From Candidatus Omnitrophota bacterium (GTDB taxonomy: Bacteria; Omnitrophota; Gorgyraeia; Zapsychrales; JANLHA01), in NCBI GenBank assembly GCA_038222225.1, contig JBBRHV010000004.1, forward strand, positions 6,778-70,777: DNA of 64,000 nt. The letters are read 5' to 3'. Each line of letters opens with the position of its first letter. Position 1 is the stretch's first letter. Positions 25,737-56,515 of the stretch are shown one piece after another. The notes under the pieces are model-generated. The model worked only from the letters and a program-made list of their open reading frames with translations, was not told the origin of the DNA and searched no databases. Position numbers and translations under genes: made by a program.

Positions 25737-25810
25737 TGGAGCGAGGGACGGGAATCGAACCCGCGTAGCCAGCTTGGGAAGCTGGAATTCTACCCCTGAA
25801 TTACCCTCGC
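25737..25810 (-). tRNA. tRNA-Gly (anticodon CCC), CCA encoded
   Basis: Minus-strand GCGAGGGTAATTCAGGGGTAGAATTCCAGCTTCCCAAGCTGGCTACGCGGGTTCGATTCCCGTCCCTCGCTCCA. Cloverleaf with a 7-bp acceptor stem, anticodon loop TTCCCAA, and T-loop TTCGATT. Confidence 0.85.
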
Positions 25811-39337: not shown

Positions 39338-41859
39338 TTCTCCCCCTCCTGGGTCAAACATATTTTACGCTTCGAACTGAAAAAACAAATGGCAGCTCCG
39401 GCCGCCACCACCGCGATGCTGATGAAGACCGTCAACGGCCAGGACAAAATCGAATAACCGAGCAGCACATAGACCACGGCCACCGCCACAAAGACCGAAA
39501 CCAGCACGCATTGCCCGCAATGACAGCTCATGCCCTTCTCATGATGCTCAAAAATCATGACCGGCTTAAATGAAATCAGGGCCGGTATAATGAACAAAGT
39601 CGCTACACTAGAGACAGCCATGATCGCGAACATAAAAAATCCAACTGTCTTATACGGAACCAGAGGCGCGGCCAACAACGGCAAAAATCCGATCGCTACG
39701 ACCAGCGCGTTTCGGACGATCGCTCTGCCCGGCCCTTTAAACATTTCATCAGCGGTTTTTTCCCAATCGTTGTTTGTATCATGGATCTCGATCGCCCGCT
39801 GAATAAAGTGGATCGCGAAATCGATCGACAATCCTAAAGTCAGAGCCGACAGCACCGCCACCGGCATATCATAATCTTTCCCAATCAACCCTAAAAGACC
39901 GTAAATAAAGAGAATCGTGACCGTGAGCGGGATCATGGAGATCAGCGCTTTCACCGGTGAACGGAACAAAACCAGCATCATAAACAGCACAATAACAAAA
40001 CTCCCCAAAAAATTTACCAGCATCCCTCCGACCATATTATTTTGCCAGACAACGTTGATATATGTCTTTCCCGCCCAGTTGTAGGTAAGGGCGAACGGCG
40101 GCGGGCTCTTCTCGATATACGCATTGGTAAACTGAACCACCTTGCTCATGTCTTTGTTGTCCCCGCTTCGAAGCTGCAGCCACAGGTTGAGCTTGGAATA
40201 ATCCGGCGTCACCAAATGCCAGAGGTCATCGGGTTTGTGAGAATTTTCAAACGAGATCAAGGTCTGGGCTATGGCCGGCTGTGAATCCGGAATGACCGAG
40301 TTTAATTTATCCCCACCGAGCAGCTCATAATAAATCTTTTTAACCATGTCAGCCAACGATAGGGATTTTCCTACCAATCCACTGTTCTGCAAAGCCTGCT
40401 GCAAGGTTTCGATATAGCGCAACATCTCCGGTTTGGTAAAAACCTCCTGCTCTTTGTCTTTGGACTCAAAAACCACATACGCTTGATAAGTTCCGGCAAA
40501 ATGTTTATTTAAGATGCGGTCAGCCACGCGGATCGGATGCTTGGCCGTAAACCAGCGCACCGGATTATCATTGACTTGAATACGGGTGACTCCATAGATC
40601 GAAACACCGATCAACAGAACTGTGACCATTAAAATGGCCTTGTAGTGCTTCACACCCATGGTCTTTGTAAATAACAGAAAACGGTCTAAAAGATGATGTT
40701 TCTCATTCTCCTGCGGAGCAACCCGACCGAAACTTTCTAGCGATTTCTCCTTGATCAACATCACATACGCCGGAACAAATACGATCGTGAGTACCCATGC
40801 GATCATGACCCCAATGGCCACATACACGCCAAACACCTGCACCGGCGGAATTGGCGAGAACGACAGAGAAAAAAACCCGACCGCTGAGGTGAGACTGGTA
40901 AAAAGCATCGGGCTGAACAGTTCATCCATCACAAAACGGATCGTCTTCTCCCGGTCTTTAAACTTCTGGTATTTATCGAAAAATTCACTTAAGATATGCA
41001 CCGAATCCAAAACCGAGATCGGCATCAGAAAGATCGGAATCATGGAACTCATGATATGAACCGGAAACCCGCATCCGATCATCAGCCCCATGGTCATCGC
41101 GACCGTCGCCAGGGCCACTAGCATCGGCGCCACGATTAGCAGGATCGATTTAAAAAATGACCACATCAACAGAAAAATAACCAACCCTGCCAACGGAGCT
41201 GAAATCGCCATTTGCTTGAACATCTCCGCGCCGAATTGATCCTCAGCCACCGGCAAACCCGTAATATAGTAGTTCTCTTCTCCTTTATACTGCACGGTCG
41301 TGGCGCGGATCTTTTGCGCCACTTCATAACTTAATGTCTTATCCTTGATCGGAATGTAGAGCGCCATCATCTTTCCGTCTTCGGAAACAATGGTTCCGGC
41401 AAACATTGGATGGCTCTCGGCCGCAGCGCGAATGGCAATCGCCTCTTGTTCAGTTTTAGGCGGCGCATCCATCAGCCATTTGAATTTCACCGCGCCGATA
41501 CCATCCTGCTCAATATTGTCTTTCGTTGAAGGGGCCATCAGTTCATAGGCGATCACCCCATCAAGATCTTTGATTTTGTTGGTCAGCTCATAGATCTTTG
41601 TTAATGTCGCGACATTGAACACCCCGTTAGGGTTTTGGTCATTAACGATCCCTAAGACCACAAAATCATAAAGGCTGAATTCTTTTTTCATCTGCTTGTC
41701 AAAGATGCGGACCGGTGCCTTGGCCGGAAGCATGTTCTCAGGATCTGTGTCGATCTTGATCTTGGTAAATTGCACAAGCGAAAGCGCCACCGCAATCGCA
41801 GTAATTGCCATCACCCATTTAGGTTTTCGAATGGCTGCTGAAATCAACTTTTGGATCAT
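39334..41859 (-). CDS. MMPL/RND-superfamily exporter (HpnN-like, two sterol-sensing-type TM bundles)
   Basis: 841 aa; two 6-TM bundles separated by periplasmic domains; extra C-terminal TM segment containing CHCGQC. Confidence 0.8.
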   Translation of the reverse strand: MIQKLISAAIRKPKWVMAITAIAVALSLVQFTKIKIDTDPENMLPAKAPVRIFDKQMKKEFSLYDFVVLGIVNDQNPNGVFNVATLTKIYELTNKIKDLDGVIAYELMAPSTKDNIEQDGIGAVKFKWLMDAPPKTEQEAIAIRAAAESHPMFAGTIVSEDGKMMALYIPIKDKTLSYEVAQKIRATTVQYKGEENYYITGLPVAEDQFGAEMFKQMAISAPLAGLVIFLLMWSFFKSILLIVAPMLVALATVAMTMGLMIGCGFPVHIMSSMIPIFLMPISVLDSVHILSEFFDKYQKFKDREKTIRFVMDELFSPMLFTSLTSAVGFFSLSFSPIPPVQVFGVYVAIGVMIAWVLTIVFVPAYVMLIKEKSLESFGRVAPQENEKHHLLDRFLLFTKTMGVKHYKAILMVTVLLIGVSIYGVTRIQVNDNPVRWFTAKHPIRVADRILNKHFAGTYQAYVVFESKDKEQEVFTKPEMLRYIETLQQALQNSGLVGKSLSLADMVKKIYYELLGGDKLNSVIPDSQPAIAQTLISFENSHKPDDLWHLVTPDYSKLNLWLQLRSGDNKDMSKVVQFTNAYIEKSPPPFALTYNWAGKTYINVVWQNNMVGGMLVNFLGSFVIVLFMMLVLFRSPVKALISMIPLTVTILFIYGLLGLIGKDYDMPVAVLSALTLGLSIDFAIHFIQRAIEIHDTNNDWEKTADEMFKGPGRAIVRNALVVAIGFLPLLAAPLVPYKTVGFFMFAIMAVSSVATLFIIPALISFKPVMIFEHHEKGMSCHCGQCVLVSVFVAVAVVYVLLGYSILSWPLTVFISIAVVAAGAAICFFSSKRKICLTQEGEK

Positions 41860-41919
41860 TTCCCTCTCCTTGCAGGCATATAAACTCCTGCGGTATAAAT
41901 CCTCCCCCTCCTGAAAAAA

Positions 41920-42183
41920 TTATTTCTTCAGGATCCGGATGATCTCCTTGATCTGCGGATCAACCACCCGGTAACACGATCTAACCCCATCCTTGCGTAC
42001 CTCTATAATACCCCTGGACTTTAAAATTGCCAGATGCTGCGAAACCGTGGACTGCGGCAACCCCAGGGCATTCATAATCTTGGTTACATTGCATTCTCCG
42101 GCACTGAGTCCCTCCACCATTTGAAGGCGGACCGGGTGGGCGATCGCTTTGAGTTTTTCACTGATGATATTGTAATCGGTCAT
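41920..42183 (-). CDS. ArsR/SmtB family transcriptional regulator
   Basis: HPVRLQMVEGLSAGECNVTKIMNALGLPQSTVSQHLAILKSRGII winged HTH; ATG at 42183. Confidence 0.8.
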   Translation of the reverse strand: MTDYNIISEKLKAIAHPVRLQMVEGLSAGECNVTKIMNALGLPQSTVSQHLAILKSRGIIEVRKDGVRSCYRVVDPQIKEIIRILKK

Positions 42184-42289
42184 TTCTTTTATCCTTTTAT
42201 CCAAATATTACGATATAACGATTAATTTGTCAAGAAAAAAGACACGCGCCTAAAACTAACCAACTTTTAATTATGGCGTGTGCCGGGCT

Positions 42290-42670
42290 TTATGACTTAA
42301 TTAATCGAACAACATACGGTCCCAATACCAATAATCCGATAAACACAGACCCAATGGCTGAGATCAACACCGCCGCCGCTGCCACATCCTTAGCCTGCTC
42401 AACCAGAGGATGAAACCCAGGAGAAGCCACGTCAGCCAGAAATTCAAAAGCCGTATTCAGAGCTTCGGCAGTCCAGACAGCCATAATCGCTAATATCAAC
42501 CAGCACCATTCGAAAGCTGTGATTTGAAAAAAGAACCCTGCCCCGATTACCATTGCAGTCACGCAGACATAAATCCAGGCATTGTGCTGGGTTTTCAGCA
42601 TGCTCCATAATCCGCGGAATGCAAATTTGAAGCTCCGGACTCGTTCTGAAAATTGGAATGGTTTTTTCAT
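42290..42670 (-). CDS. dgkA: diacylglycerol kinase
   Basis: 126 aa from ATG at 42670 (MKKPFQFSERVRSFKFAFRG...); three TM helices; DgkA family. Confidence 0.8.
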   Translation of the reverse strand: MKKPFQFSERVRSFKFAFRGLWSMLKTQHNAWIYVCVTAMVIGAGFFFQITAFEWCWLILAIMAVWTAEALNTAFEFLADVASPGFHPLVEQAKDVAAAAVLISAIGSVFIGLLVLGPYVVRLIKS

Positions 42671-42840
42671 AGTCGTGCTTAATGAATATCGCGCGTTAAA
42701 AAGTGACGCCACCTAACGTAAACGGCAATATTATACACCAATTCATTCAAATGTTGTTCTTTTTGATGTAGGAATGAAGACACATTTCGCCGACCATTCC
42801 GAATTCGTAGGTTATAACCTACCAAGTTGCCGCGATTTAT

Positions 42841-44337
42841 TTAGAGATAAAGGTCCCGCTCACCGGCTTCGATGCGGCGGTAGTAATTCATGAAGAGGTC
42901 AAAGGTTTGCGGATTGGTCTGGCGGATCTGAGCGATCTCGCGCTCAATGATCGGAATGCTAAGTTTGCGGGTTTCTTCCCCGGCAAAATCATCCACCCAT
43001 TCTTTAAAAGTGAGCACAGCGTTGAGCTTGCAGAACTTCCCTTCCTGACCATTACGCAGAAGTTCCATGATGCACTCCCCGGTCCGGCCGCAGCGGTACC
43101 CGGCCGTGCAAAAAGAAGTAATATAGCCCATACGGGCAAATTCAGCGATCACATCTTCCAAACTGCGGGTATCGCCTAGTAAAAACTGCTGAGTCTTCTC
43201 ATCTTGAAGGCTCGCCGTCTTTTGATATCCGCCGAGACCTATGTTAGAGGATGCGTCGGTTTGGGTGATCCCCATCTCGATCGCTTCCCTGCGCATCGCC
43301 GCGTTCTCGCGGGCGGTAATGATCATTCCGGCATGCGGGATCGCCAAACGCAAAACCAGGATCAATTTCTTAAAATCTTCATCCGAGACGCGGTGTTTGC
43401 TGAATTGATCCGCGTTCGTATTTAAAGCCGGCTCAAGCCTCGGAAACGAAACCGTATGCGGCCCGATCCCAAAACGACTCTCAAGTTCCAGCGAATGATA
43501 CACCAACCCCATGACATCAAACCGCCAATCCGCCAGCCCAAAGAGCGCGCCTATTCCCACATCATCAATGCCGGCCTCCAGTGCCCGATGCATGGCATAG
43601 AGCCGCCAACGGTAATGCCCTTTGATCGTATTCAATGGATGAACGTCGCGGTACGTCGGCAAGTGATAGGTTTCCTGAAACACCTGATACGTCCCGATCC
43701 CCGCGTCACGGATTTTCTTAAGATCAACGATGGAAAACGGTGGGGCATTGACATTCACCCGACGGATGTAGGACTCATGCCCGTTAACCTTCGGTTTGAC
43801 GTTATAGATCGTCTTAATGCTCGACACAATAAAATCCACATCATTACGCGGGTGCTCGCCATAGACAACGATCAGGCGCTTATGACCGATCTTGCCGGCT
43901 AAAGCCTCAACCTCTTTAACGATCTCCCAGGGAGCCAGCACTTTGCGTTCTGCGGTCTCGTTCTCGCTTTTAAACCCGCAGTAGCTGCAGTTGTTCACAC
44001 AGTAATTGCCTAAATACAACGGGGCAAAGGTGACGATGCGGTTGTCATAGACTTTGAGCTTAACTTTAAGCGCAGTCTGCTTCATTTCCTGCAGAAGCTG
44101 CGGGTCCTCGACATTGAGAAGGACCGCGGTCTCTGCCGGCGACAAATTCTGGATCGCCAGCGATTTCGCCAGAATGTCCCTTACCTGCTGCGGATCAGGA
44201 TCCTTGTGGCGCCCCAAAATCAGCGGAATCTCATCCTGCGGAATAAAATCCCTGCCGCCTACGAGATATTTGTCGATCTCATCCTGACAAATACGCTGCT
44301 CGAGCCACGTCGGTTGTTTTACTTCTGAAGTAAACAT
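42841..44337 (-). CDS. hydG: [FeFe]-hydrogenase H-cluster maturase, radical-SAM HydG (ThiH family with C-terminal extension)
   Basis: Radical-SAM CVNNCSYC, and a C-terminal Cys cluster FCTAGYRCGRTGEC...C that is absent from ThiH. Located in the hydrogenase operon. Confidence 0.8.
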   Translation of the reverse strand: MFTSEVKQPTWLEQRICQDEIDKYLVGGRDFIPQDEIPLILGRHKDPDPQQVRDILAKSLAIQNLSPAETAVLLNVEDPQLLQEMKQTALKVKLKVYDNRIVTFAPLYLGNYCVNNCSYCGFKSENETAERKVLAPWEIVKEVEALAGKIGHKRLIVVYGEHPRNDVDFIVSSIKTIYNVKPKVNGHESYIRRVNVNAPPFSIVDLKKIRDAGIGTYQVFQETYHLPTYRDVHPLNTIKGHYRWRLYAMHRALEAGIDDVGIGALFGLADWRFDVMGLVYHSLELESRFGIGPHTVSFPRLEPALNTNADQFSKHRVSDEDFKKLILVLRLAIPHAGMIITARENAAMRREAIEMGITQTDASSNIGLGGYQKTASLQDEKTQQFLLGDTRSLEDVIAEFARMGYITSFCTAGYRCGRTGECIMELLRNGQEGKFCKLNAVLTFKEWVDDFAGEETRKLSIPIIEREIAQIRQTNPQTFDLFMNYYRRIEAGERDLYL

Positions 44338-45590
44338 TCCACTCCTGTAGATGCGCTGGCCGTCTGATAAACTTTTAGCGCGTCGCTAAACGGCATCAAC
44401 ACCCGCTCCAGAACGCCCTGCGTATACGAAATACAAATTCCGTAATTAGTAATCCGGACCGAACTCTTGCGAGCCTCGGTAATGCGGCCCAGCATTTCTT
44501 TGCGGGTCAGCATACATCCCCCGCAATGAACAATCAATTGATACTGCGATAAATCTTTGGGGAAATCACGGCCGGTACAATATTCGATTCTCAAATCTTT
44601 TCCGGTGGAATTTTTCAGCCCGCGCGGAATTTTAACCCGGGCGATATCTTCGTCAATCGCATGATGCGTACAAGCTTCCGCGATCAGAACCCGGTCCCCG
44701 TCCTTCAAATCTTTGATCTTGGCAGCACCGCGAACCTGTTCCGTCAGGTCGCCTTTAAACCGAGACAACAGCGTCGAAAACGTGGTCACCTTAACATCTT
44801 GAGCGGTCTGACGGATCACCTCTCCCACCACCGGTGAATCGCAAATGACAAGATCCGGACTCTTCGACAAACGGGCCAGGGCTTGAACATACTCGGTCTC
44901 TTTAACGATCAAAGTCATCATGGAATGATCCAAGGCCTCACGGATCGCCTGAACCTGTAGCATTTTAATCCGGCCTTTGGGAGCTTCTAAATCGATCGGA
45001 GCCACCAAAAGCGCCAACCCTCCCTGAGGAATCAAATCTGCCATCAAATGAGGCGTGCGGTAATACTCATACGGAGACACTTTCAACATGCCGTGTTCCA
45101 ACCGAGTCACGCTGTCCTGACGGTTTGACCAGTCGGTGCTCGAACACAACAAAACATCATCGGCTTCCGCCTTCAGGCGGTTGATAAATCCTTCCGACGG
45201 TTTTTTCAGGTCAAGCTTATTGACCACAGCCACAACCGGAGTTTTAGTCTCCCGCGCTTGCGCGATGACATCTCTCTCATAATCCGTCCAGACATCGGCT
45301 TCCGTAACCAGCATGATCACATCCGAACGCGTCATCACGCGCCGCGTCCTTTCCCGTCGCATCTCGCCCAACGCGGTCTGGTCATCTAAACCCGCTGTAT
45401 CCAAAAACACAACCGGCCCCACCGAATGCAGCTCCATGGTCTTTTCAACCACGTCAGTCGTTGTCCCCGGGACATCCGATGTGATGGACACATCCTGCCC
45501 AGCGATCATATTCAGAAAACTGGACTTTCCCACATTAGTGCGACCGAATAGCCCGATCTGCAATCGTAACGCTTTTGGTGTTGTTAACAT
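44319..45590 (-). CDS. hydF: [FeFe]-hydrogenase maturation GTPase HydF
   Basis: G1 GRTNVGKSS, G3 DTAG, G4 NKLD; C-terminal Cys motifs (CTHH...HCGGC). Confidence 0.85.
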   Translation of the reverse strand: MLTTPKALRLQIGLFGRTNVGKSSFLNMIAGQDVSITSDVPGTTTDVVEKTMELHSVGPVVFLDTAGLDDQTALGEMRRERTRRVMTRSDVIMLVTEADVWTDYERDVIAQARETKTPVVAVVNKLDLKKPSEGFINRLKAEADDVLLCSSTDWSNRQDSVTRLEHGMLKVSPYEYYRTPHLMADLIPQGGLALLVAPIDLEAPKGRIKMLQVQAIREALDHSMMTLIVKETEYVQALARLSKSPDLVICDSPVVGEVIRQTAQDVKVTTFSTLLSRFKGDLTEQVRGAAKIKDLKDGDRVLIAEACTHHAIDEDIARVKIPRGLKNSTGKDLRIEYCTGRDFPKDLSQYQLIVHCGGCMLTRKEMLGRITEARKSSVRITNYGICISYTQGVLERVLMPFSDALKVYQTASASTGVECLLQK

Positions 45591-45608
45591 CTACGGTCTC
45601 CTCGACTC

Positions 45609-45998
45609 CTATGATTTTCGAATATAATTTTGAACTGTCTTTAAAAATAATTCCGGATTGATGGGCTTCTCCAAAAACGCTTTTGCCGGAACAAGGACTT
45701 CACCGGTCTGATAATCATAAGCAAATTCACCGACTTTTTTAATCCCCGAGACAATAATGACCGGAGTATGTCTGGTGGTTTCATTGGCATGAAGCGCCTT
45801 TGCGACATTAAACCCTTCCGAATCATCCGCCATCATGACATCCAGCGAAATCAGGTCCGGATTGATCTCTTTAGCCTTCTTCACGCCCTGCTGGCCGTTG
45901 TTGGCGGTCGCGACTGTATATCCGTTGGCCTCCAATAAGGCCTTAACGGCTTCAATAAAATCCTGGTCATCATCAATCATCAAAATTGTGTTTGCCAT
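45609..45998 (-). CDS. stand-alone response-regulator receiver (REC) protein
   Basis: MANTILMIDDDQDF..., phospho-acceptor Asp in LISLDVMM, T/S in VIIVSG, Lys in EKPI; no output domain. Confidence 0.85.
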   Translation of the reverse strand: MANTILMIDDDQDFIEAVKALLEANGYTVATANNGQQGVKKAKEINPDLISLDVMMADDSEGFNVAKALHANETTRHTPVIIVSGIKKVGEFAYDYQTGEVLVPAKAFLEKPINPELFLKTVQNYIRKS

Positions 45999-46012
45999 TC
46001 CTTCCCCCCTGT

Positions 46013-47758
46013 TTAACGTTTGTACTCCGGTCGTGGTTTGTACTTTGTATGCAGCAAATGATGCGCTTTTTCGCCTAGCGGAGCACCCAAAAACTCCTCA
46101 TAGAGTTTTTTTACAAACGGGTTTTCGTGACTGTAACGGACGGCACAAGATTCGTCATCATCATACAAACCCTGCGCGCGTGCCAAACGCACTTCATTGC
46201 TCACACCATACGGCTGCCCGCCGCCGCCAATGCATCCCCCCGGACAGGCCATGACTTCAATAAAATGATAGGGCAAAGGTTCATTGTTTTCCTTGGCCTG
46301 ACGAACTTTGCTAAGCACATATTCTACATTACTTAAACCGTGCGCAACAGCAATATTTACGGTTGAACCCTGAATGGTGACCGATGTTTCCTTCACTCCC
46401 TCCAGCCCCCTCACATCCATAAATTCAACGTCTTTCAGATTCTCTTTGGTAATAAAATTATAGGCCGTGCGCAACGCCGCTTCCATCACGCCGCCGGTCG
46501 CCCCGAAGATCGTCCCGGCGCCGGAATAATCACCCATAAGGTGATCCGAATCTTCATCAGGAAGATGTTCAAAATCGATTCCGGACTGTTTAATCATACG
46601 GATCAGTTCCCGGGTCGTTATAACGTAATCCGTATCCTGATAACCTGAGGAAAACATGTCCTGGCTGCGGTTGATCTCATACTTTTTTGCCGTACACGGC
46701 ATGATCGAAACCACCACCACCTTCGCCGGATCGATCTTATGAGTCTGAGGATAATACGTCTTAGCCAAAGCGCCCATGATCTCCTGCGGAGACTTCGCAG
46801 AAGAAAAATGCTCGATCATGTCGGTATGAAATTTCTCCATAAAATCCACCCAAGACGGGCAACAGGTTGTGATCAACGGCAACGGCCCCTTTTTATACAC
46901 AAACCGCTGAACAAATTCACTGGCCTCCTCCATGATCGTCACATCGGCGGAAAAATTGGTGTCAAAGACCGCTTTAAACCCGATCCGTCTTAACAGGGCA
47001 TACAGTTTGCGTGTCAGATTCGTTCCCGGCTTCATGCCGAACCCTTCTCCGACCGCTACGCGCACTGACGGCGCGATCTGCACAACACAATGCTTATCTG
47101 GATCCTGCAAAACGTCCCAGACGTTCTGCGTATCGTCCTGCTCAAAAATAGCCCCGGTCGGACAATGAGCAGCGCACTGCCCGCATCGCACACACGGAGA
47201 ATCACCAAGCTTAATATCACCGGCGGCCGAGATTCGAGTCTCCACGCCGCGCTCCAAAAATGAAAGAGCCCAGACATTCTGTGTTTCCTGACAAACCGTC
47301 ACACAACGGCCGCATTTGATGCACTTACTCGGCTCCAAAACAATCGTTCCCGTTGAACGATCGATAGGAAGATCCCTCACAACTTTTTTAAAACCTTCAT
47401 CCCGGATACCGAAATCAGAGACCATGCTCTGAAGTTCACAGTTATTGTTGCGGCCACACTTCAAACAATCATTAGGGTGATTGGACAGGATCAGCTCCAG
47501 GACCGTCCGCCGGGTCGCAACCAGTTCAGGGTCATGTGTGATAATGTCCATCCCCTCCCCAATCGGCGTGCAGCAGGAACGGATCATCTTACGCGTTCCC
47601 TTAACCTTGACGATGCAGACTCCGCAGGCGCCGCTCGCCACGACATCCGGGTGTTTACATAAAGTCGGAATATTAACCTGAACCTGCTTGGCCACATCCA
47701 GAATGGTCGCGCCTTCTTCAAACTCGACCGGGAGATCATTGATAATTGCTTTTCCCAT
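46013..47758 (-). CDS. hydA: [FeFe] hydrogenase catalytic subunit HydA (2Fe-2S and 4Fe-4S N-terminal domains plus H-cluster domain)
   Basis: H-cluster motifs TTCCPSW, MPCTAKKYE, EVMACPGGCIGGGGQP; N-terminal plant-type ferredoxin fold and multiple CxxCxxCxxxCP ferredoxin motifs. Confidence 0.95.
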   Translation of the reverse strand: MGKAIINDLPVEFEEGATILDVAKQVQVNIPTLCKHPDVVASGACGVCIVKVKGTRKMIRSCCTPIGEGMDIITHDPELVATRRTVLELILSNHPNDCLKCGRNNNCELQSMVSDFGIRDEGFKKVVRDLPIDRSTGTIVLEPSKCIKCGRCVTVCQETQNVWALSFLERGVETRISAAGDIKLGDSPCVRCGQCAAHCPTGAIFEQDDTQNVWDVLQDPDKHCVVQIAPSVRVAVGEGFGMKPGTNLTRKLYALLRRIGFKAVFDTNFSADVTIMEEASEFVQRFVYKKGPLPLITTCCPSWVDFMEKFHTDMIEHFSSAKSPQEIMGALAKTYYPQTHKIDPAKVVVVSIMPCTAKKYEINRSQDMFSSGYQDTDYVITTRELIRMIKQSGIDFEHLPDEDSDHLMGDYSGAGTIFGATGGVMEAALRTAYNFITKENLKDVEFMDVRGLEGVKETSVTIQGSTVNIAVAHGLSNVEYVLSKVRQAKENNEPLPYHFIEVMACPGGCIGGGGQPYGVSNEVRLARAQGLYDDDESCAVRYSHENPFVKKLYEEFLGAPLGEKAHHLLHTKYKPRPEYKR

Positions 47759-47780
47759 GAATAAAACTCCTCTTTAAACT

Positions 47781-49583
47781 CTATCGTTGTATGGCTCCAA
47801 ATTTACAGACTTCAAAACACTGTCCGCAACGGATGCACTTCTCGGCCACGATCCAATACCCCTGTTCGCGGTCTCCGGGAATCGCTCCCACCGGGCAATT
47901 GCGCTGACACAACGTGCAGCGACGGCATTTTTCCTGAATAATGCTATAGTTAAACAACTGGCTGCATTTTCCCGCTGGACAATGCTTGTCATGAATATGC
48001 GCGCGATATTCTTCATCAAAATACTGCAGCGTTGAAAGAACAGGATTCGAAGCCGTCTGTCCAAGCCCGCACAACGAAGCCTTCTGCATCGCAGAAGAAA
48101 TCCTCCGCATTTTTAGAACATCTTCCTCCTGTGCCTTGCCTTCAGAAATGTCCTTTAAAATACTCAGCAGCTGCTTTCCGCCGATCCGGCACGGGGCACA
48201 TTTTCCGCAAGATTCCTCAACGCAAAATCCCAAATAAAATTTTGCGATATCGATCATGCAGTCGTCTTCATCCATGACGATCATCCCGCCCGACCCCATG
48301 ATAGAACCCAGCTTCTGAAGATTTTCATAATCCACCGGCGTGTCAAAAAACTGTTCCGGAATCACTCCCCCTGAAGGCCCTCCGGTTTGAATGGCTTTGA
48401 TTTTTTTCCCGTTCTCTGTTCCACCGCCGATATCAAAAACAATTTCCCGGAGTGTGATCCCCATGGGAACTTCCACCAAACCAGTATTTTTCACCTTTCC
48501 GGTTAAAGCAAAAACTTTGGTTCCCCTGGAATCTTTTGTTCCGATCTTTGAAAACCAATCGCCGCCTCTTTGAATAATCACTGGAATATTGGCTAAAGTT
48601 TCCACATTATTAATGATTGTCGGTTTTCCCCACAGGCCCTTGACCGATGGATACGGCGGGCGCGGTACCGGGCAACCGCGTTTCCCTTCAATAGAGGCAA
48701 TCAACGCCGTCTCTTCACCGCAGACAAAAGCTCCTGCTCCCAACCGAATTTCCAAATCAAAAGAAAATTTTGTCCCTAAAATATTTTTCCCCAGGACCCC
48801 ATACTCATGGGCCTGATCAATCGCCCTCTGAACACGCTCAATGGCCAGCGGATATTCAGCTCGAATATAAAAAAACCCCTTCGTCGCGCCGACCGTAAAT
48901 CCGGCAATGATCATTCCTTCTAAAACCGAATGCGGATCTCCTTCCAAGACGCTGCGATCCATATACGCGCCCGGATCCCCCTCGTCACCATTGCAAATGA
49001 TATATTTCTGATCTGCCTGAACACCACGAGCAAAATTCCATTTCATCCAGGTCGGAAACCCCCCGCCTCCGCGTCCGCGTAATCCACTCAGCCGCAGCTC
49101 TTCGATCACTTTTTCCGGGACTCCCCTGGTTAATGTTTTTTTCAATCCCTGATAACCGTCATTCGCCAGATAATCCTCGATATTCTCCGGATCGATCACG
49201 CCGCAATTACGCAAAACAATACGGATTTGCTTCTCAGAGGTAACAATACGATACTTTGAAATTTCAACAGCTTTCGGATTCCCCCGAACAAGATGATGCT
49301 GAATAATATCAACGGCCGCCTGCGCATCAACGTTCCCATACACGCCTTCAGAAACGCCATGCCGCTCGATCTCAACCAAAGGCTCCGCGTAACACATTCC
49401 AAGACAACCGCAGCGCATCAATTCCGCATCGATACCGTTGGCCTCAAGCTCAGAATAAATTTTCTTAAAAACATCCTTCGCCCCCGCGGCAATCCCGCAG
49501 GAACTCATACCGACCCGAATAATGGGGCGATCACTTTTCTTTCTCTTAAAACCATCCAATTGACCCATGGTCAACTTCGCCAT
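47781..49583 (-). CDS. hydB: NuoF-like NAD(P)H-binding flavoprotein subunit HydB
   Basis: 51-kDa-subunit motifs (GRGGGGFPT, ESCGKCAPCR); N-terminal thioredoxin-like 2Fe-2S domain and two C-terminal 4Fe-4S ferredoxin motifs. Confidence 0.95.
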   Translation of the reverse strand: MAKLTMGQLDGFKRKKSDRPIIRVGMSSCGIAAGAKDVFKKIYSELEANGIDAELMRCGCLGMCYAEPLVEIERHGVSEGVYGNVDAQAAVDIIQHHLVRGNPKAVEISKYRIVTSEKQIRIVLRNCGVIDPENIEDYLANDGYQGLKKTLTRGVPEKVIEELRLSGLRGRGGGGFPTWMKWNFARGVQADQKYIICNGDEGDPGAYMDRSVLEGDPHSVLEGMIIAGFTVGATKGFFYIRAEYPLAIERVQRAIDQAHEYGVLGKNILGTKFSFDLEIRLGAGAFVCGEETALIASIEGKRGCPVPRPPYPSVKGLWGKPTIINNVETLANIPVIIQRGGDWFSKIGTKDSRGTKVFALTGKVKNTGLVEVPMGITLREIVFDIGGGTENGKKIKAIQTGGPSGGVIPEQFFDTPVDYENLQKLGSIMGSGGMIVMDEDDCMIDIAKFYLGFCVEESCGKCAPCRIGGKQLLSILKDISEGKAQEEDVLKMRRISSAMQKASLCGLGQTASNPVLSTLQYFDEEYRAHIHDKHCPAGKCSQLFNYSIIQEKCRRCTLCQRNCPVGAIPGDREQGYWIVAEKCIRCGQCFEVCKFGAIQR

Positions 49584-49597
49584 CGACTCCCCCTTTA

Positions 49598-50473
49598 TTA
49601 AACCGCTGCAATTTTTTCTTTAGAATATTCAGATAAAATATTAATGATATTTTCTTTTTTAACTTTCCCGTAAATTTTTTCATCAATCATGATCACCGGT
49701 GCTAGACCGCAGCACCCCAGACAACGCACAACCTGAATATGAAATTCTCCATCGGAGGTTGTCTGCCCCTCTTCAATATTCAATAAAACCTTCAGTTCCG
49801 CCAAAATCCCCGGCGTCCCCTTCAAATAACAGGCCGTTCCCAAGCACACGGAAATCAGATGCTTTCCGGGCGGATCAAGTTTGAAATAATTATAAAATGT
49901 GATCACCTCATAAATACGGGCTAACGGAATCCCCAACAAACGCCGAAGCTCAAAAGAAACTTCACGGGGGACATAACCATAATGATTCTGGATTTCGTGA
50001 AGAATCATAATCAAATTGCCGTCTTTGCCGCTCCATTTCTCAACCAACGCATCAATTTCACCGACAAAACTACGATGCTCCGTCCCCGTCTTCTTCATAA
50101 AAATCTTAACTGTGCTTAATAAACGCTCGGGCTGAATCGGCTTCTCAATAACCATTTTGACCGGAAGTTCTTTCTCGTCGGGCTGGATGTCAAACGAAAA
50201 ACCCATTTCCCTTTTTGCACCAGTAATCAAGATCAACGGAATATTGCACGTCGCCGCATCCGCAGCCAACGCTTTGGCCATCTCCGCCCCTTCCGTCTTG
50301 TATGTCATCATCATATCCAGCAAGATCAAATCCGGCGACTGTTCCTTAGCCCGCTGAAAACCCTCCTGCCCATTGGAGGCGCGAATCACCTCATGTCCAT
50401 CGGACTCCAGAAGAAGCGCCGTCGCTTCCAAAAAATCCAGATCATCATCCACAATTAAAATCTTGTTCTGCAT
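49598..50473 (-). CDS. hydC: fusion of a REC receiver domain to the NuoE-like 2Fe-2S subunit HydC
   Basis: Residues 1-125: receiver (DDD, LILLDMMM, LILITG, EKPI), paralogous to the 45609-45998 product. Residues 140-291: NuoE/HydC fold with CLGTACYL...CLGCCGLAPV. Confidence 0.85.
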   Translation of the reverse strand: MQNKILIVDDDLDFLEATALLLESDGHEVIRASNGQEGFQRAKEQSPDLILLDMMMTYKTEGAEMAKALAADAATCNIPLILITGAKREMGFSFDIQPDEKELPVKMVIEKPIQPERLLSTVKIFMKKTGTEHRSFVGEIDALVEKWSGKDGNLIMILHEIQNHYGYVPREVSFELRRLLGIPLARIYEVITFYNYFKLDPPGKHLISVCLGTACYLKGTPGILAELKVLLNIEEGQTTSDGEFHIQVVRCLGCCGLAPVIMIDEKIYGKVKKENIINILSEYSKEKIAAV

Positions 50474-50487
50474 GTCCCCACCCTCTG

Positions 50488-52335
50488 TTAAATTGCCTTA
50501 GGTATCTGAAACTTAAACGAGTTCCCCTTTAAGGCAGGTTCCACCCAAATTTTTCCGCCATGACGCTCCACAATTTCCTTTGAAATAAACAACCCGATAC
50601 CGGTTCCCTTCACGCTCTCCTGACCGCGATAAAGGATCCGTGAAAATTTCTTGAACAGCTTATCCATATCCACACTGGCGATCGGTTCCCCGTCATTATA
50701 AACTTCCACTTCGAACATGTCCGCATGGTCTCTGGCCAGAATCCTGATCTTCCCGCCGATCAATCCATACTTTACCGCATTACTCAATAAATTATTTACA
50801 ACGATCTGCATCAATCCCGGATCAACAACCACATGAAGTTCAGCATCCACTTTATTTGAAATTGTCAGATTTTTTTCTTCCGCCTGCTGTTGAATGGATT
50901 CTATCGCGGGATCAAACAAATGCTCCTTCAACAAGATTTCCTGTTTATCAACTTTGAGCTCGTCCTTTTCAATCCGGCTCAAGCTCAAAAAATTCTTTAC
51001 AGTAACAGTCAAATAGTCCAGATTCCGGGCCATGGACTTCAGGACATTTTCCTGTTTCTCATTGATTTCACCCAAAATCCGCTTGCGCAACAGATAGGTA
51101 TTGAGAACAATCGACGACAAAATCCCTTTCAGCTCGTGAGACACAAAACCAATCAAATCCAGGTAGCGTTTGTTCATTACCGCCAAGCGCTTATGCGTTT
51201 CCTCCAGACTTTTTTCACGTTCCCCCAGCTTTTCCGACATATAATTGATCGAATCCCCCAACTCCTTCATTTCATAAACACTGGATCCCGTCGTGTCAAT
51301 CTTGCTATCCCATTTTCCATGAGCGATTTTGACCGTTGTGCGGACCATTTGAGTCAACGGACGGATCATCGAATTGGCCAAAAAATATGCAAAAATCACC
51401 GTTGGGATCGCACCCATGAGGATAATCATAAGGAGCCCCAAAAACAATCGATCTCCTATCCTCTGAAATGGCTTTTCTAAAATGCCCACATACAGACTTC
51501 CAATAATATCGCCTTGGATATTCCGGATCGGTTCATATGCCGTGATATACCAATCCGTAACCACAAAAGCCCGATCCAACCAGGTTCCTCCCTGCTCGAC
51601 AACTTTCTTATACACCTCTTCCGAAATCCGTGTTCCAATCGCCCGATTGCCGTTTTCATCCAGAACATTCGTCGCCACTCTCACGTCATCCTCAAAAATG
51701 GTCACCGTTCCATAAGGCTTCCCATCGTACATCTTCTGCTCAAAAACAACATTGACGATGTGATCAATAAAATCAAAATTATTATTAATAATCTGTCCTC
51801 CGTAAAGGACCTTTTCCACCCGCCCCTCAGAATTTAGAATAGGCCTGGCAAATTCCATGCTCAAGGCGTCCAAAACCTGGGTACGCTTTGCCAGCCCAGC
51901 TTTCGGAGTCGGACGGACGTCAATGACCATTCCCGGCTTGATCAGCTGAAGCTCCTCCTTCCCTATAATACGAGTAGCCACAACCGGCTCTCCAGTCTCA
52001 AAAGCCAGCTGAACAATATCACTGGCAACTGTTCTTTGATCAGCAACATTAACCACCCCAATATAATCCAGGCCCAACTCCTTTTGAACAGCTTTGAGAT
52101 TTCCATCCGGATCGACAATATTAAAAGCGATTCTCATTTGGTTCAACTTCTCATTATAAACGCTGCGGATCGTGTTTAAATTCTGCGTAACCGTCTGCTG
52201 AGCCTCTGCAAAAATGTACCGCTTAACCACAAAAAAACCATAACCGGACATAAATAGACCCCAAAACAGAACCATTGAAATGATTCCGATGAGGATTTTT
52301 GACCAAATTTTAGTTGGCTCAATTCGATTATTCAT
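50488..52335 (-). CDS. sensor histidine kinase with periplasmic double-Cache domain, HAMP, HisKA, HATPase
   Basis: Two TM helices bracketing a ~280-aa periplasmic domain; H-box SHELKGILSSIV; N, G1, G2 boxes (GTGIGLFISKEIVERHGGKIWVE). ATG at 52335 preferred over the track's GTG at 52395. Confidence 0.85.
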   Translation of the reverse strand: MNNRIEPTKIWSKILIGIISMVLFWGLFMSGYGFFVVKRYIFAEAQQTVTQNLNTIRSVYNEKLNQMRIAFNIVDPDGNLKAVQKELGLDYIGVVNVADQRTVASDIVQLAFETGEPVVATRIIGKEELQLIKPGMVIDVRPTPKAGLAKRTQVLDALSMEFARPILNSEGRVEKVLYGGQIINNNFDFIDHIVNVVFEQKMYDGKPYGTVTIFEDDVRVATNVLDENGNRAIGTRISEEVYKKVVEQGGTWLDRAFVVTDWYITAYEPIRNIQGDIIGSLYVGILEKPFQRIGDRLFLGLLMIILMGAIPTVIFAYFLANSMIRPLTQMVRTTVKIAHGKWDSKIDTTGSSVYEMKELGDSINYMSEKLGEREKSLEETHKRLAVMNKRYLDLIGFVSHELKGILSSIVLNTYLLRKRILGEINEKQENVLKSMARNLDYLTVTVKNFLSLSRIEKDELKVDKQEILLKEHLFDPAIESIQQQAEEKNLTISNKVDAELHVVVDPGLMQIVVNNLLSNAVKYGLIGGKIRILARDHADMFEVEVYNDGEPIASVDMDKLFKKFSRILYRGQESVKGTGIGLFISKEIVERHGGKIWVEPALKGNSFKFQIPKAI

Positions 52336-52565
52336 ATTTTTTTGATAAATTTTCACAAATTTACAATAGTTTTCATATATCGTGAAATATTTCACTTTTA
52401 AATAAATAAAAAAATAAAGAACCCTTGCTCTTTATGTCAACGCTTCCATCAATCGTACTATTCCGTTACGATTAAGTATATAATAAAAAAATTTAAATTC
52501 AACAAAAATTATTTTTCAAATAAGAACCTTTCCGCCATTCAATCCATTCTATCGCCATGCCCGCC

Positions 52566-54110
52566 CTATTTTTTTTTAATCAAATAAAACATCCCCTTCC
52601 CAGCGCTTGAACCTCCCCTCACATCCTCCAAAACATACCGGTTCTTCAAAGTACTGCAAAAATCGTTTCTGTTTTGAACGCACCAATAGTCATCCACTAA
52701 AACCAATGGCCGGTCTTTTAAAAAGGAATTATAGGCGTTGTCATCCATCATATGCCCGATAAAAGCACTGGATTTGTCCATCGTTGTAATAATCGATGAC
52801 GGGTTATAACTGATGAATACATAACGCTCGTCAAAATTCTCCCCCTCTAAAAACATCTCTTGCTGCTCATCAAAAATATGAGGTGACAGTCCGATGAAAA
52901 CATAAGGAAAGCTCCAGAAAAAACTTAGCGCTGCCGCAAAAGCCAAAACACTAAAGACCAGCCGCCTGCTCTTAAAACAAAAAACGCCCCGCTGATAAAT
53001 ACCATAAAATCCCATAGCCGACCAAATGACGACTGGAAAATAAAATTGAAGATTCATTCGTTGAAAATGTCCCGTCATCCCTCGATGCATGAAGGAATAA
53101 AAGCACAAAAAGGAAGCAAAAAATAAAAATAGACACCAGAACATCGGCTTATTTTTCTTTAATGTCTCGTGAGCGCCCACGGCTGCCATAAAAACCCACA
53201 CGATCGGAATCGCCTCGTTCTTGACCCAAAACCACAAATGACTCATAAAGACATGCGCAATAGACATCTGCCAACCCTGCATCCAAAGCGTCTCATATGC
53301 CTTGATTGACACAATATATAAAAAATACGGGAGCAGTAAAATCGCGTAATCTAACATTTTGAAATAATAGCGTCGATCAATTTTTGCGAAGAAAACCAGC
53401 CCTGCCGCAAACAGCAATAGAATCAAGCCGTTTTCAGGCCTTAGCAGGAGCGTGAACGCCGTTACGGCCATGAACTGAACAAAAGACCGGTCATCCTTCC
53501 GTTGGGAAAAAATCAAAAATGAAAGAACGTTTAATAAAATGAAAAGGGATGACGCCATTTCCAAGGAAGAATTTCCGGAAAATTTTAAATGCAGCGGAGT
53601 AAATGCCAACAAACCTGCAGAAAGCAAGGCAACGGATTCTCTCTGCGTTATCAAATAGGCGATTAAAAACAAAACAACCACAGAAAGCGCGCCCAGAAAA
53701 ACATTGAAATTATACGCCACCGATTCTGAGGATCCCGACACATTAAAAACCAATGAGAGCAAAAAATGATATCCCGGCGTCCACTGAGGCAAATTTGAAG
53801 ATAGGCACTGCCCATCCAAGTACAGATCGCACCGGGCAAATTGCCTACTTTCAGCCATGTTTTTTGCAATATTGATATGCTCATACTCGTCATAAAACAC
53901 ATAATGCCGGTGCGGCACAACACCCCATCGCACAAAAAGCGCGAGAGAGAACAGCAGCGCCAAAATGACCCAATATTTTTTGGTCACATGCTGAAAGAGC
54001 ATCGCAGAACTTTTAAAATTGCGGAATACACCGAACATCAGAAATATGAACAAAGCAGCGCAGAAATAATACGTCAGCTGAATCAAATTGATTATGTTGG
54101 GGATCGCCAT
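52566..54110 (-). CDS. GT-C glycosyltransferase, ArnT/PMT-like (GT83/GT39 family)
   Basis: About 12 TM helices; YDEYEHINIAKNM in the first periplasmic loop (DE-x-RYAE-like); periplasmic C-terminal domain. Confidence 0.55.
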   Translation of the reverse strand: MAIPNIINLIQLTYYFCAALFIFLMFGVFRNFKSSAMLFQHVTKKYWVILALLFSLALFVRWGVVPHRHYVFYDEYEHINIAKNMAESRQFARCDLYLDGQCLSSNLPQWTPGYHFLLSLVFNVSGSSESVAYNFNVFLGALSVVVLFLIAYLITQRESVALLSAGLLAFTPLHLKFSGNSSLEMASSLFILLNVLSFLIFSQRKDDRSFVQFMAVTAFTLLLRPENGLILLLFAAGLVFFAKIDRRYYFKMLDYAILLLPYFLYIVSIKAYETLWMQGWQMSIAHVFMSHLWFWVKNEAIPIVWVFMAAVGAHETLKKNKPMFWCLFLFFASFLCFYSFMHRGMTGHFQRMNLQFYFPVVIWSAMGFYGIYQRGVFCFKSRRLVFSVLAFAAALSFFWSFPYVFIGLSPHIFDEQQEMFLEGENFDERYVFISYNPSSIITTMDKSSAFIGHMMDDNAYNSFLKDRPLVLVDDYWCVQNRNDFCSTLKNRYVLEDVRGGSSAGKGMFYLIKKK

Positions 54111-54211
54111 GCTCTTGAAACCATGGAGCCTCTGGCCGAATGCCGCAATGGCCAGACTCCTTTTTTCCTGTTAGTCAACTCTATGAAAAAACAATGAACC
54201 TTTTCTTTCGT

Positions 54212-54928
54212 CTACTCCCCCACCTCAAAAGAGATCACAACATTAAATGTTAAATCCGGATATTTTAAATCTTTGGGGAATGGCGGAAACGGCACAGACT
54301 CTTTAATGCTTCTTAATCCAACGCTCTTCAAAAACGAATTTGCCCGGCTGCGCTCATGGATAATTTGAACATCTTTCAACTCACCATTTGACGAGAGCAC
54401 AAAGGTCAAATAAACCTCCCCCGCTTCAAATCGGGGGTTGTCGACATAATAATAAGCCCGCTTTCGAATCTTGTCACGCACCTGCTCATGATACGTTAAA
54501 TACCGAGGATTGGTGATTTTCTCCGATTGCAACAAAGGAACAGCGATCTGTCGTTTCGCGCTCGAGGCAAGCGGCTTGGATAATGTTTTCTCTTGATCGG
54601 GGAGCTTGATCGGAGCCTTATCCAATGGCTTAAAGGGAACGTCAATGTCCAGTATTGGCTTAATCAATGCCTTGGGTGGATCTATTTTCTTTTTATCCTC
54701 CATGGCCTGCATTCGATCCGCACGAAAAACCTCCTGCTTCCGGCCTTGTTCAATCGCCTGATAAACAACTTCAATATCTTTCGCGGCTGAAACACGCTTT
54801 TTATAATGAATATTTGTCAAAAACGCCACTAAGACCAGGACGACATGAAACACCAGCGAAGTGACCAGCGCCCAACGAAAAATTTTTCGTTCCAAAGATA
54901 ATAAATAGTCATAGACCATCTTATTCAC
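54212..54928 (-). CDS. TonB-family energy transducer-like protein
   Basis: N-terminal TM helix, Pro/Lys-rich spacer, and a C-terminal TonB_C-like segment YLTYHEQVRDKIRKRAYYY...GEVYLTFVLSSNGELKDVQII. Confidence 0.5.
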   Translation of the reverse strand: MNKMVYDYLLSLERKIFRWALVTSLVFHVVLVLVAFLTNIHYKKRVSAAKDIEVVYQAIEQGRKQEVFRADRMQAMEDKKKIDPPKALIKPILDIDVPFKPLDKAPIKLPDQEKTLSKPLASSAKRQIAVPLLQSEKITNPRYLTYHEQVRDKIRKRAYYYVDNPRFEAGEVYLTFVLSSNGELKDVQIIHERSRANSFLKSVGLRSIKESVPFPPFPKDLKYPDLTFNVVISFEVGE

Positions 54929-55590
54929 CGAAAGAGCTTATTGATAAAAAATGCGATGAACCGCAGTGTGTCAACGCATGGGTTGATATTGCTTTTTTCG
55001 CCGGAATAAATGGTTTGGATGGAAACCGTTTCGATCTTAAAGCCAGCTCTGGCCGCCTCAATCAACAGTTCACTCTCGATCTGAAAACCGGTTGAGCGTA
55101 AACGCACCCGCCTTAGAACATCAACACGGATCAAACGAAAACCGCACTGGGTATCAGGAATGCGTTGCCTGCAGACCCACGAAATCAAAGCAGACATCAA
55201 TCGATTTGTATATACGCGGATTTTCGGCATGTTTTTGCAAGAAGACATCCTGGATCCGTTAATAATTCCACACTGCGGATCCTCCTGAAATTTTTTGACG
55301 AAGATCAAAAGGTCATCCAACGCATGCTGTCCATCGCCATCCATCGTTATGACCGCCTCGCACTCTTTTGATACCGCATACTGAAACCCATCACGCAAAG
55401 AAGCCCCTTTCCCCTTTCGAACATCATGACGAATAATATGCGCCCCATTCCGTCGGGCGATGTCCCCAGATGAATCCTTTGACCCGTCATCAACAACAAT
55501 CACCTCGAAACCCATTCGGCAGGCCCCGCTCACAATCTCACCGATATGTTCCTCTTCGTTTAAAACGGGAATAACGATATATGTGTTCAT
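54925..55590 (-). CDS. GT2 polyprenyl-phosphate glycosyltransferase (ArnC/DPM1-like)
   Basis: IVIPVLNEEEHI, VVDDGSKD, DGDGQH motifs. Confidence 0.8.
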   Translation of the reverse strand: MNTYIVIPVLNEEEHIGEIVSGACRMGFEVIVVDDGSKDSSGDIARRNGAHIIRHDVRKGKGASLRDGFQYAVSKECEAVITMDGDGQHALDDLLIFVKKFQEDPQCGIINGSRMSSCKNMPKIRVYTNRLMSALISWVCRQRIPDTQCGFRLIRVDVLRRVRLRSTGFQIESELLIEAARAGFKIETVSIQTIYSGEKSNINPCVDTLRFIAFFINKLFR

Positions 55591-56483: not shown

Positions 56484-56515
56484 AACCTCAAAGACTGCTT
56501 TCTTTAAAATAGAGA

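Follow-up and report, generated by a model that had tools for sequence, protein, structure and literature searches.

A Cache histidine kinase and a receiver-fused HydC subunit in the bifurcating-type [FeFe] hydrogenase gene cluster of an Omnitrophota bacterium

Main

In many anaerobes the H2 and redox balance is set by electron-bifurcating HydABC hydrogenases, which are studied both for their mechanism and for biohydrogen. In a 64-kb stretch of DNA from a Candidatus Omnitrophota bacterium (contig JBBRHV010000004.1, positions 6,778 to 70,777; hereafter the window, in whose coordinates all positions are given) we found seven consecutive minus-strand genes, running from 52335 to 42841, that encode a histidine kinase with a periplasmic Cache sensor, a HydC subunit that begins with a response-regulator receiver domain (REC-HydC), HydB, HydA, a stand-alone receiver (REC2), HydF and HydG. 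The best explanation of this cluster, judged from its sequence, is a single transcription unit that joins a bifurcating-type HydABC and two of the three H-cluster maturases to a dedicated two-component system. On balance, we consider it probable that the kinase responds to an extracytoplasmic metabolite by controlling HydABC directly, at the post-translational level, with the HydC receiver as the link; this is the most economical reading because the cluster has no DNA-binding output, both receivers appear competent for phosphorylation and one of them is predicted to be rigidly joined to the flavin-side subunit. The case is built entirely from comparative genomics.

Results

Seven genes in one apparent transcription unit

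The gaps between the genes are 14, 14, 22, 14 and 18 nucleotides (nt), and the start of hydG overlaps hydF by 19 nt; a purine-rich Shine–Dalgarno sequence lies 5' of all seven start codons, and none of the junctions within the cluster holds a terminator-like hairpin. The first such hairpin with a T-run past hydG, at 42707–42727 (minus strand, a consensus match only), probably marks where the transcription unit ends. An earlier note on this DNA had read the gene order, the operon-like packing and the make-up of HydABC from the letters, and profile searches recovered all seven genes with their domains. The maturases are HydF, the H-cluster maturation GTPase and scaffold (44319–45590, minus; TIGR03918, 498 bits against a cut-off of 326), and HydG, a radical S-adenosylmethionine H-cluster maturase with its CX3CX2C motif present (42841–44337, minus; TIGR03955, 443 bits against a cut-off of 312). 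HydE was not found in the 64-kb window, where the sole match was a weak HydE-to-HydG cross-match. Profile searches of the operon likewise found no DNA-binding output domain or helix-turn-helix-bearing regulator; REC2 consists of a receiver only.

A receiver domain built into HydC

REC-HydC (49598–50473, minus; 291 amino acids, aa) is a single uninterrupted open reading frame (ORF) whose residues 5–122 match Response_reg (E-value, E, 2.7e-15) and whose residues 141–283 match 2Fe-2S_thioredx (E 8.5e-46). The residues needed for phosphorylation, namely D9 and D11 of the acidic pocket, the phospho-acceptor D53, T84 and K111, are each at least 90% conserved in an alignment of 83 REC-HydC fusions, and the four [2Fe-2S] ligands of the HydC half (C210, C215, C251 and C255) are invariant in these 83. 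A degenerate pseudo-receiver was considered and ruled out, as all phosphorylation residues are conserved. REC2 (45609–45998, minus; 129 aa; Response_reg E 3.7e-18) carries the matching set D9, D11, D53, S84 and K111, is 47% identical to the HydC-fused receiver over 129 residues without a gap, and has in common with it an unusual beta4-beta5 segment; by sequence it is a paralogue of that receiver. Both regions that the earlier note had taken for receivers hold up in profile searches, with their phospho-acceptor residues kept.

An 85-kb NCBI contig encodes a protein identical to REC-HydC, whose two Pfam domains occur together in more than 120 further protein clusters (90% identity). Every match with a name is from Aureabacteria or Candidatus Omnitrophota, Ca. 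Gygaella among the latter. When one genome per species was scanned, the full fusion turned up in about 20 loci; most are from Omnitrophota, one is from a Planctomycetia-labelled bin and one is on a short contig assigned to Atribacterota by binning. By sequence as by fold, none of the solved HydC or NuoE chains in the PDB carries a receiver: the solved HydC chains are 154–189 aa long and lack one, in contrast to the receiver-fused HydC described here, and a PDB fold search with REC-HydC matched its HydC half only.

In the predicted REC-HydC model (predicted local distance difference test score, pLDDT, 85) an unbroken helix, residues 115–146, runs from alpha5 of the receiver into the first helix of the HydC domain. 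This geometry would also suit a device for localisation or assembly, in which phospho-dependent binding to the kinase, or dimerisation of receivers, recruits the hydrogenase to the membrane or controls its oligomers while the free receiver competes. The receiver is attached at the periphery of HydC by what the model shows as a rigid helix, the two paralogous receivers share their beta4-beta5 segment, and the solved HydABC enzymes (7P5H, 8A6T, 7Q4V) are oligomers of protomers. Besides the kinase, however, there is no evident membrane-anchoring partner, and we hold such a device to be improbable as the main role; since sequence cannot part it from an allosteric switch, it is better seen as a variant of direct control than as a contradiction of it.

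Kinase, receivers and hydrogenase are inherited together

The seven window proteins were mapped onto 85 related loci. A Cache kinase lies directly upstream in 13 of the 18 loci with REC-fused HydC and in one of the 52 with plain HydC, counting only loci with enough flank; a second receiver follows HydA in 8 of 15 fused loci versus none of 45 plain ones. The Fisher p-values, 2e-9 and 2.5e-6 respectively, overstate the evidence, since the 85 loci are phylogenetically non-independent. Five fused loci have no adjacent kinase, and there a second hydrogenase cluster occupies the place; in locus L052 the kinase stands at the head of the entire double hydrogenase cluster.

The order kinase, REC-HydC, HydB, HydA, REC, to which the earlier note had drawn attention, is kept at 55–70% identity in relatives from Omnitrophota and Aureabacteria. 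Receiver and HydC are associated in three independent layouts: fused, as a REC gene just before hydC' (locus L006), and as a REC gene just after hydC (two Planctomycetota-type loci). Taken as sequence comparisons, these recurring layouts together with the kinase linkage are the classic pattern of functionally interacting partners, and the arrangement of histidine kinase and REC-HydC hydrogenase is conserved across several phyla. The kinase and the receivers might instead have turned up beside unrelated genes in relatives; both travel with the hydrogenase.

These comparisons bear on the suspicion that the adjacency is incidental, with the kinase and receivers serving an unrelated pathway and the REC-HydC ORF being an artefact of annotation or assembly. 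General caution is in place, as metagenome-assembled sequences can be chimeric. More than 120 independent protein clusters, drawn from many samples, show the fusion as a single uninterrupted ORF, however, and synteny overall is kept at 55–90% identity across phyla, so that this explanation is effectively refuted.

The closest relative, L004 (Omnitrophota RA.bin146), has a REC-HydC 87% identical to that of the window and is syntenic with it from the upstream glycosyltransferase through the ORF past hydG. Two Phycisphaerae-type contigs, L084 and L086, have the order Rex, Cache kinase, a small ORF of ~118 aa without a Pfam match, HydB, HydA, HydG, plain HydC and a single-domain REC, with hydC and the REC gene adjacent and unfused; in L086 an OmpR-type regulator lies just outside the cluster.

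In L006 (1147–8873; Ca. Gygaella obscura) the same kinase stands between two hydrogenase operons. The upstream set comprises Rex, a 123-aa free REC, a 158-aa HydC', a short HydB' of 407 aa and HydA', with HydB' showing the non-bifurcating signature (EPGTFKDR, GGASG); the downstream set comprises REC-HydC, a long HydB and HydA. Similar layouts occur in L008, L010, L012 and L013. Going by these sequences, a single kinase may in such loci serve two hydrogenases, one non-bifurcating and one bifurcating, with a receiver apiece.

By sequence, HydABC is of the electron-bifurcating type

A PDB sequence search places all three subunits nearest to solved bifurcating HydABC enzymes, those of A. woodii, T. 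kivui and T. maritima. HydB (47781–49583, minus), a NuoF-like flavin mononucleotide (FMN)/NADH subunit with additional Fe-S domains, matches A. woodii HydB (7Q4V) over its full length (E 6e-215); HydA (46013–47758, minus), the catalytic [FeFe] subunit, matches A. woodii HydA1 (E 1e-172); and HydC matches the solved HydABC chains (E 2.6e-42), T. kivui HydC being 47% identical across the NuoE half of REC-HydC. The HydDB group A3 enzymes of T. maritima (7P5H), A. woodii (7Q4V/8A5E) and T. kivui (8A6T) have the same three subunits and cofactor-binding domains. HydA has intact H-cluster motifs L1, L2 and L3 (TTCCPSW, MPCTAKKYE and EVMACPGGCIGGGGQP), a Fe_hyd_lg_C match (E 2.5e-92) and an N-terminal 2Fe-2S and 4Fe-4S ferredoxin region with two CX2CX2CX3C motifs. 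HydB begins with a thioredoxin-like [2Fe-2S] domain and ends with a 2x[4Fe-4S] ferredoxin domain, also with two CX2CX2CX3C motifs.

Losey et al. 2020 (PMC7311640) part bifurcating beta subunits from NADH-only ones by three residue signatures: A/E..M at the NADH site, an F close to the FMN, and GGPSG. HydB of the window carries all three signatures (DPGAYMDR, GAGAFVCGEE and GGPSG). Because the nearest structures are bifurcating and every HydB signature residue is present, the sequence supports an electron-bifurcating-type, group A3-like HydABC, the type to which the earlier note had assigned it and with which the Fe-S domains of HydB also agree. HydA scores 794 bits (cut-off 765) against the NCBIfam model FeFe_hydrog_A6; the non-bifurcating enzyme that the name of this model suggests ('NADH-dependent, group A6') is ruled out here by the HydB signatures, and the label fits the second hydrogenase cluster of L006.

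The same features bear on a reversed flow of information, in which the [2Fe-2S] cluster of HydC would report redox or H2 state to the attached receiver and the free receiver would relay it to another target. The off-pathway [2Fe-2S] cluster of HydC adjoins the flavin in NuoEF-type modules, the continuous helix of the model could transmit changes either way, and the free receiver has no identified target. HydABC nevertheless looks like a working enzyme and not a sensor, since the catalytic motifs of HydA are all intact, HydA has no PAS or other sensory domain, and the bifurcating signature of HydB is complete. We know of no precedent for reverse signalling from such an enzyme, and regard it as very improbable.

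The kinase has a bimodular sensor related to formate-binding Cache domains

The kinase ORF was listed as 50488–52395, opening at GTG 52395. That start, which falls within a Rex-like palindrome, was dropped in favour of ATG 52335, because the resulting 615-aa product (50488–52335, minus) fits orthologues of 610 aa. The protein has a first transmembrane segment near residues 10–36, a periplasmic sensor of ~260 aa, a second transmembrane segment near 293–315, then HAMP, HisKA and HATPase_c, with the catalytic boxes SHELKG (H-box), NNLLSNAVKY (N-box) and GTGIGL (G2-box).

Pfam labels the sensor sCache_3_3 (E 1.9e-33) and, in part, Cache_3-Cache_2; the 'dCache' of the earlier note therefore fails as a Pfam label and stands at the level of fold, where an AlphaFold model (pLDDT 93.6) shows a long stalk helix and, behind it, two alpha/beta modules, 80–182 and 187–286. 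In the PDB the periplasmic domain has no sequence relatives other than the formate-bound sCache chemoreceptor domains 8PY1 (E 6e-8) and 8PY0, which also lead the fold search among true ligand-binding domains. Cache_3-Cache_2 and sCache_3_3 sensors bind formate through a salt-bridging Arg (R142 in PacF, R118/R111 in 8PY1/8PY0), Thr (T105/T100) and Tyr (Y167/Y160) as hydrogen-bond donors, and a pocket-closing Phe (F182/F175) (Monteagudo-Cascales et al. 2025, PMC11804620); for 8PY1 and 8PY0 we set the offset between chain and native numbering by residue identities. The PacF dCache and the two sCache sensors share their Pfam models, and the Arg and Tyr, with our kinase: in an alignment of 66 homologues the Arg aligns with R219, which is invariant, and the Tyr with Y267, which is at least 90% conserved. 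Given the homology of its membrane-proximal module with the formate-binding sCache sensors, whose key Arg and Tyr it retains, our best guess from the sequence is that the kinase binds formate or a similarly very small carboxylate.

Three features tell against this assignment. The Thr position falls beside an alignment gap, where T210 and T212, both conserved, are the candidates, leaving the equivalence uncertain; the Phe is replaced by a Tyr (Y282) that is invariant in the alignment; and the formate-like module is by topology the second, membrane-proximal one of a kinase, unlike in PacF, 8PY0 and 8PY1, chemoreceptors in which formate occupies the single or membrane-distal module. For these reasons the ligand may differ from formate.

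Distant homologues of the sensor (33–52% identity) give independent support to the view that the signal concerns hydrogen or redox metabolism: seven of the nine contigs sampled have it in [FeFe], [NiFe]/Hdr-like, NuoEF or HydEFG clusters, the other two being L092, with Etf/Hdr-like genes, and L085, at a contig end where the gene context is incomplete. In L087 (JGI 3300028897) and L089 (an Aminicenantes metagenome-assembled genome) sensor homologues of ~34% identity lie within [NiFe] hydrogenase clusters with small and large subunits, FlpD/MvhD, HdrA- and HdrB/C-like proteins, HycI and several single-domain receivers; this family of sensors thus has links with both metal classes of hydrogenase.

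A probable Rex layer at the promoter

The best sigma-70-like promoter candidate (52411–52440, minus; TTGACA, an 18-nt spacer and TATTTT, 10 of 12 positions matching; a candidate by consensus match only) sits in an AT-rich spacer of 170–230 nt after the upstream glycosyltransferase gene. Just 3' of it, ~45 nt before the kinase start codon, is a Rex-operator-like inverted repeat, cGTGAAatatTTCACt (52381–52396, minus), with two outer mismatches to TGTGAAN4TTCACA and a perfect core palindrome; this palindrome, GTGAAatatTTCAC, fits the TTGTGAAN4TTCACAA-like type of Rex operator, and L004 has the identical element at the equivalent place. Many relatives have a rex gene immediately before the kinase. 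In the 323 kb of related loci, TGTGAAN4TTCACA is matched ten times with no more than one mismatch, and eight of these sites lie 30–150 bp upstream of a rex gene that precedes the kinase.

As the palindrome lies at the promoter and is kept in L004, and as Rex boxes precede rex in eight relatives, the operon is probably Rex-controlled, with rex encoded elsewhere; the two-component system is probably an added layer and not a substitute for transcriptional control. The earlier note had tied hydrogen metabolism to an extracellular cue by phosphorylation 'rather than only by transcription'. Control by phosphorylation is plausible in view of the missing DNA-binding output domain; the transcriptional layer suggested by the Rex-like palindrome had escaped it.

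An AT-rich hairpin (AAAGAGC..GGTTCTTT) followed by a T-run lies at 52405–52433 (minus), between the upstream gene and the Rex-like box, and its perfect 7-bp stem is conserved in L004. This hairpin may serve to end transcription of the glycosyltransferase gene upstream; alternatively, it may be a leader element, one that overlaps the promoter-like hexamers.

Proposed mechanism and its weighing

Gene content, domain integrity, conserved phosphorylation residues and the co-inheritance of kinase, receivers and hydrogenase are observed, and they lead us to propose the following scheme. Transcription would start in the AT-rich spacer at about 52440 and would probably be repressed by Rex, which senses NADH/NAD+, through the palindrome at 52381–52396. 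The membrane kinase would sense a small extracytoplasmic molecule through its bimodular Cache domain and phosphorylate Asp53 of the HydC-fused receiver and Asp53 of the free receiver. Phosphorylation of the HydC receiver would alter HydABC in its conformation, its oligomeric state or the interface between HydB and HydC, and the activity of the complex would be switched or biased post-translationally; the free receiver would serve as a second output or as a phosphate sink.

Besides the shared ancestry of the loci compared, several points weigh against this scheme. Kinase-to-receiver phosphotransfer is what we infer from operon adjacency and co-inheritance, and the ligand and the effect on the enzyme likewise are read from sequence. 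In the REC-HydC model the receiver has no predicted alpha4 helix, and segment 85–106 is a low-confidence loop; on these two grounds the output surface of the HydC-fused receiver is atypical as modelled. L004 lacks the free REC and hydF between hydA and hydG: the pair, by sequence lost or moved in that very close lineage, is dispensable. The 64-kb window itself has no rex gene. In a distant relative, L088 (8837–10242), a REC ORF and a distinct sigma-54 activator ORF lie between the Cache kinase and a NuoE-NuoF fusion gene; the REC and activator ORFs are possibly a split NtrC-type regulator, and some members of the kinase family probably act on transcription.

The L088 locus favours an alternative in which the kinase acts mainly on transcription, through an unlinked DNA-binding regulator, for instance of the NtrC type, with the receivers as phosphate sinks or modulators. 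Many members of the kinase family are labelled 'NtrC family sensor kinase' in the JGI annotation, the OmpR-type regulator of L086 lies just past its cluster, and single-domain receivers are known as phosphate sinks in chemotaxis and phosphorelay systems. On the other side, the operon has no DNA-binding regulator, and most relatives also have no DNA-binding output domain in the cluster. A pure sink needs no fusion to an enzyme subunit, yet fusion or adjacency of REC and hydC recurs in three layouts and the fusion is kept in more than 120 protein clusters. We rate this alternative as unlikely, though a little less so than a role in localisation or assembly.

If direct control of HydABC by the kinase holds, it would give the first case of an electron-bifurcating enzyme switched post-translationally by a two-component system. 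A NuoE-like subunit that contains a receiver and comes with a kinase of its own suggests rapid enzyme-level control by an external metabolite; the single Asp on HydC, which may gate or bias bifurcation, is an experimental handle. The arrangement also gives a likely role, hydrogenase control, to a large Cache sensor family without characterised kinase members, and hints at how uncultured, often host-dependent Omnitrophota might couple fermentation to the excretions of their neighbours. More tentatively, and as something less likely than not, one may picture a multi-phylum family of formate-type Cache kinases with periplasmic sensors that serve NuoEF-containing hydrogenases. Those of Omnitrophota and allied groups would phosphorylate the receiver within HydC, and in genomes like that of Ca. 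Gygaella the kinase would toggle electron flow between a bifurcating and a non-bifurcating NADH hydrogenase, both tagged with receivers of their own.

Relation to known systems

In the portions of reviews and family surveys open to search, HydABC regulation is either not discussed or ascribed to Rex or to HydS-type sensory hydrogenases, and the surveys, to the same extent, make no mention of a Cache kinase or receivers with the HydABC operons of T. maritima, A. woodii or T. kivui. Group C sensory hydrogenases (HydS/HfsB) with Ser/Thr kinases or phosphatases adjoin bifurcating genes in Firmicutes, such as Ruminococcus albus (Zheng et al. 2014, cited in PMC6288185). As in our operon, regulatory proteins stand there beside a bifurcating hydrogenase operon, and phosphorylation has been proposed to take part in control. 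Those systems use a cytoplasmic PAS hydrogenase-like sensor and Ser/Thr phosphorylation, with an output thought to be transcriptional, whereas our operon pairs a periplasmic Cache sensor with chemistry of the His-Asp kind and has a receiver within the enzyme. Profile searches found no HydS-like gene in the window and no PAS-hydrogenase or Ser/Thr kinase gene in or beside the operon.

H2-sensing control of [NiFe] hydrogenases, by HoxBC-HoxJ-HoxA in Cupriavidus necator and HupUV-HupT-HupR in Rhodobacter, detects cytoplasmic H2 through a regulatory hydrogenase and acts through an NtrC-type factor. The HoxJ/HupT-type systems resemble ours in having a histidine kinase and a response regulator dedicated to hydrogenase, and differ in that our cluster has no DNA-binding domain and its sensor faces the periplasm.

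Receivers fused to enzymes are familiar from the methylesterase CheB, the diguanylate cyclase PleD and the phosphodiesterase RpfG. By analogy with these, the N-terminal receiver of REC-HydC would control the attached domain without DNA binding; unlike in them, the attached domain is a [2Fe-2S] electron-transfer subunit of a multisubunit redox enzyme. The literature searched contains no described example of a receiver fused to such a subunit. Neither a receiver-fused HydC nor a two-component system with HydABC is mentioned in the searchable portions of HydABC/Bfu surveys and of a review of multimeric [FeFe] hydrogenases, in a search that left subscription journals mostly uncovered, or in the genomic Omnitrophota and Hydrogenedentota papers searched. 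The earlier note had known of no description of this organisation, and our searches, with that same limit on subscription journals, agree. Bifurcating HydABC, two-component systems, Rex and Cache sensors are known parts; apparently undescribed are the receiver on HydC, the dedicated Cache kinase for HydABC and the lack of a DNA-binding output.

Genomic surroundings

Upstream of the operon, a minus-strand block at 52566–57667 holds envelope and glycolipid genes: a PMT_2-family glycosyltransferase next to the operon, an ORF without a Pfam match (54212–54928), a family-2 glycosyltransferase, a lipid A acyltransferase and a glycosyltransferase resembling monogalactosyldiacylglycerol (MGDG) synthase. 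Downstream, 37257–42712 (minus) encodes a diacylglycerol kinase, a small ArsR-family regulator, an MMPL/RND-type transporter, a LolA-like protein and a 432-aa ORF without a Pfam match. Across the window (1–64000) nearly all ORFs of at least 150 aa lie on the minus strand, and GC skew is negative in every 2-kb bin (-0.09 to -0.30), which points to a long co-oriented stretch, probably on the leading strand. The sole Rfam match in it is a transfer RNA gene at 25740–25810 (minus).

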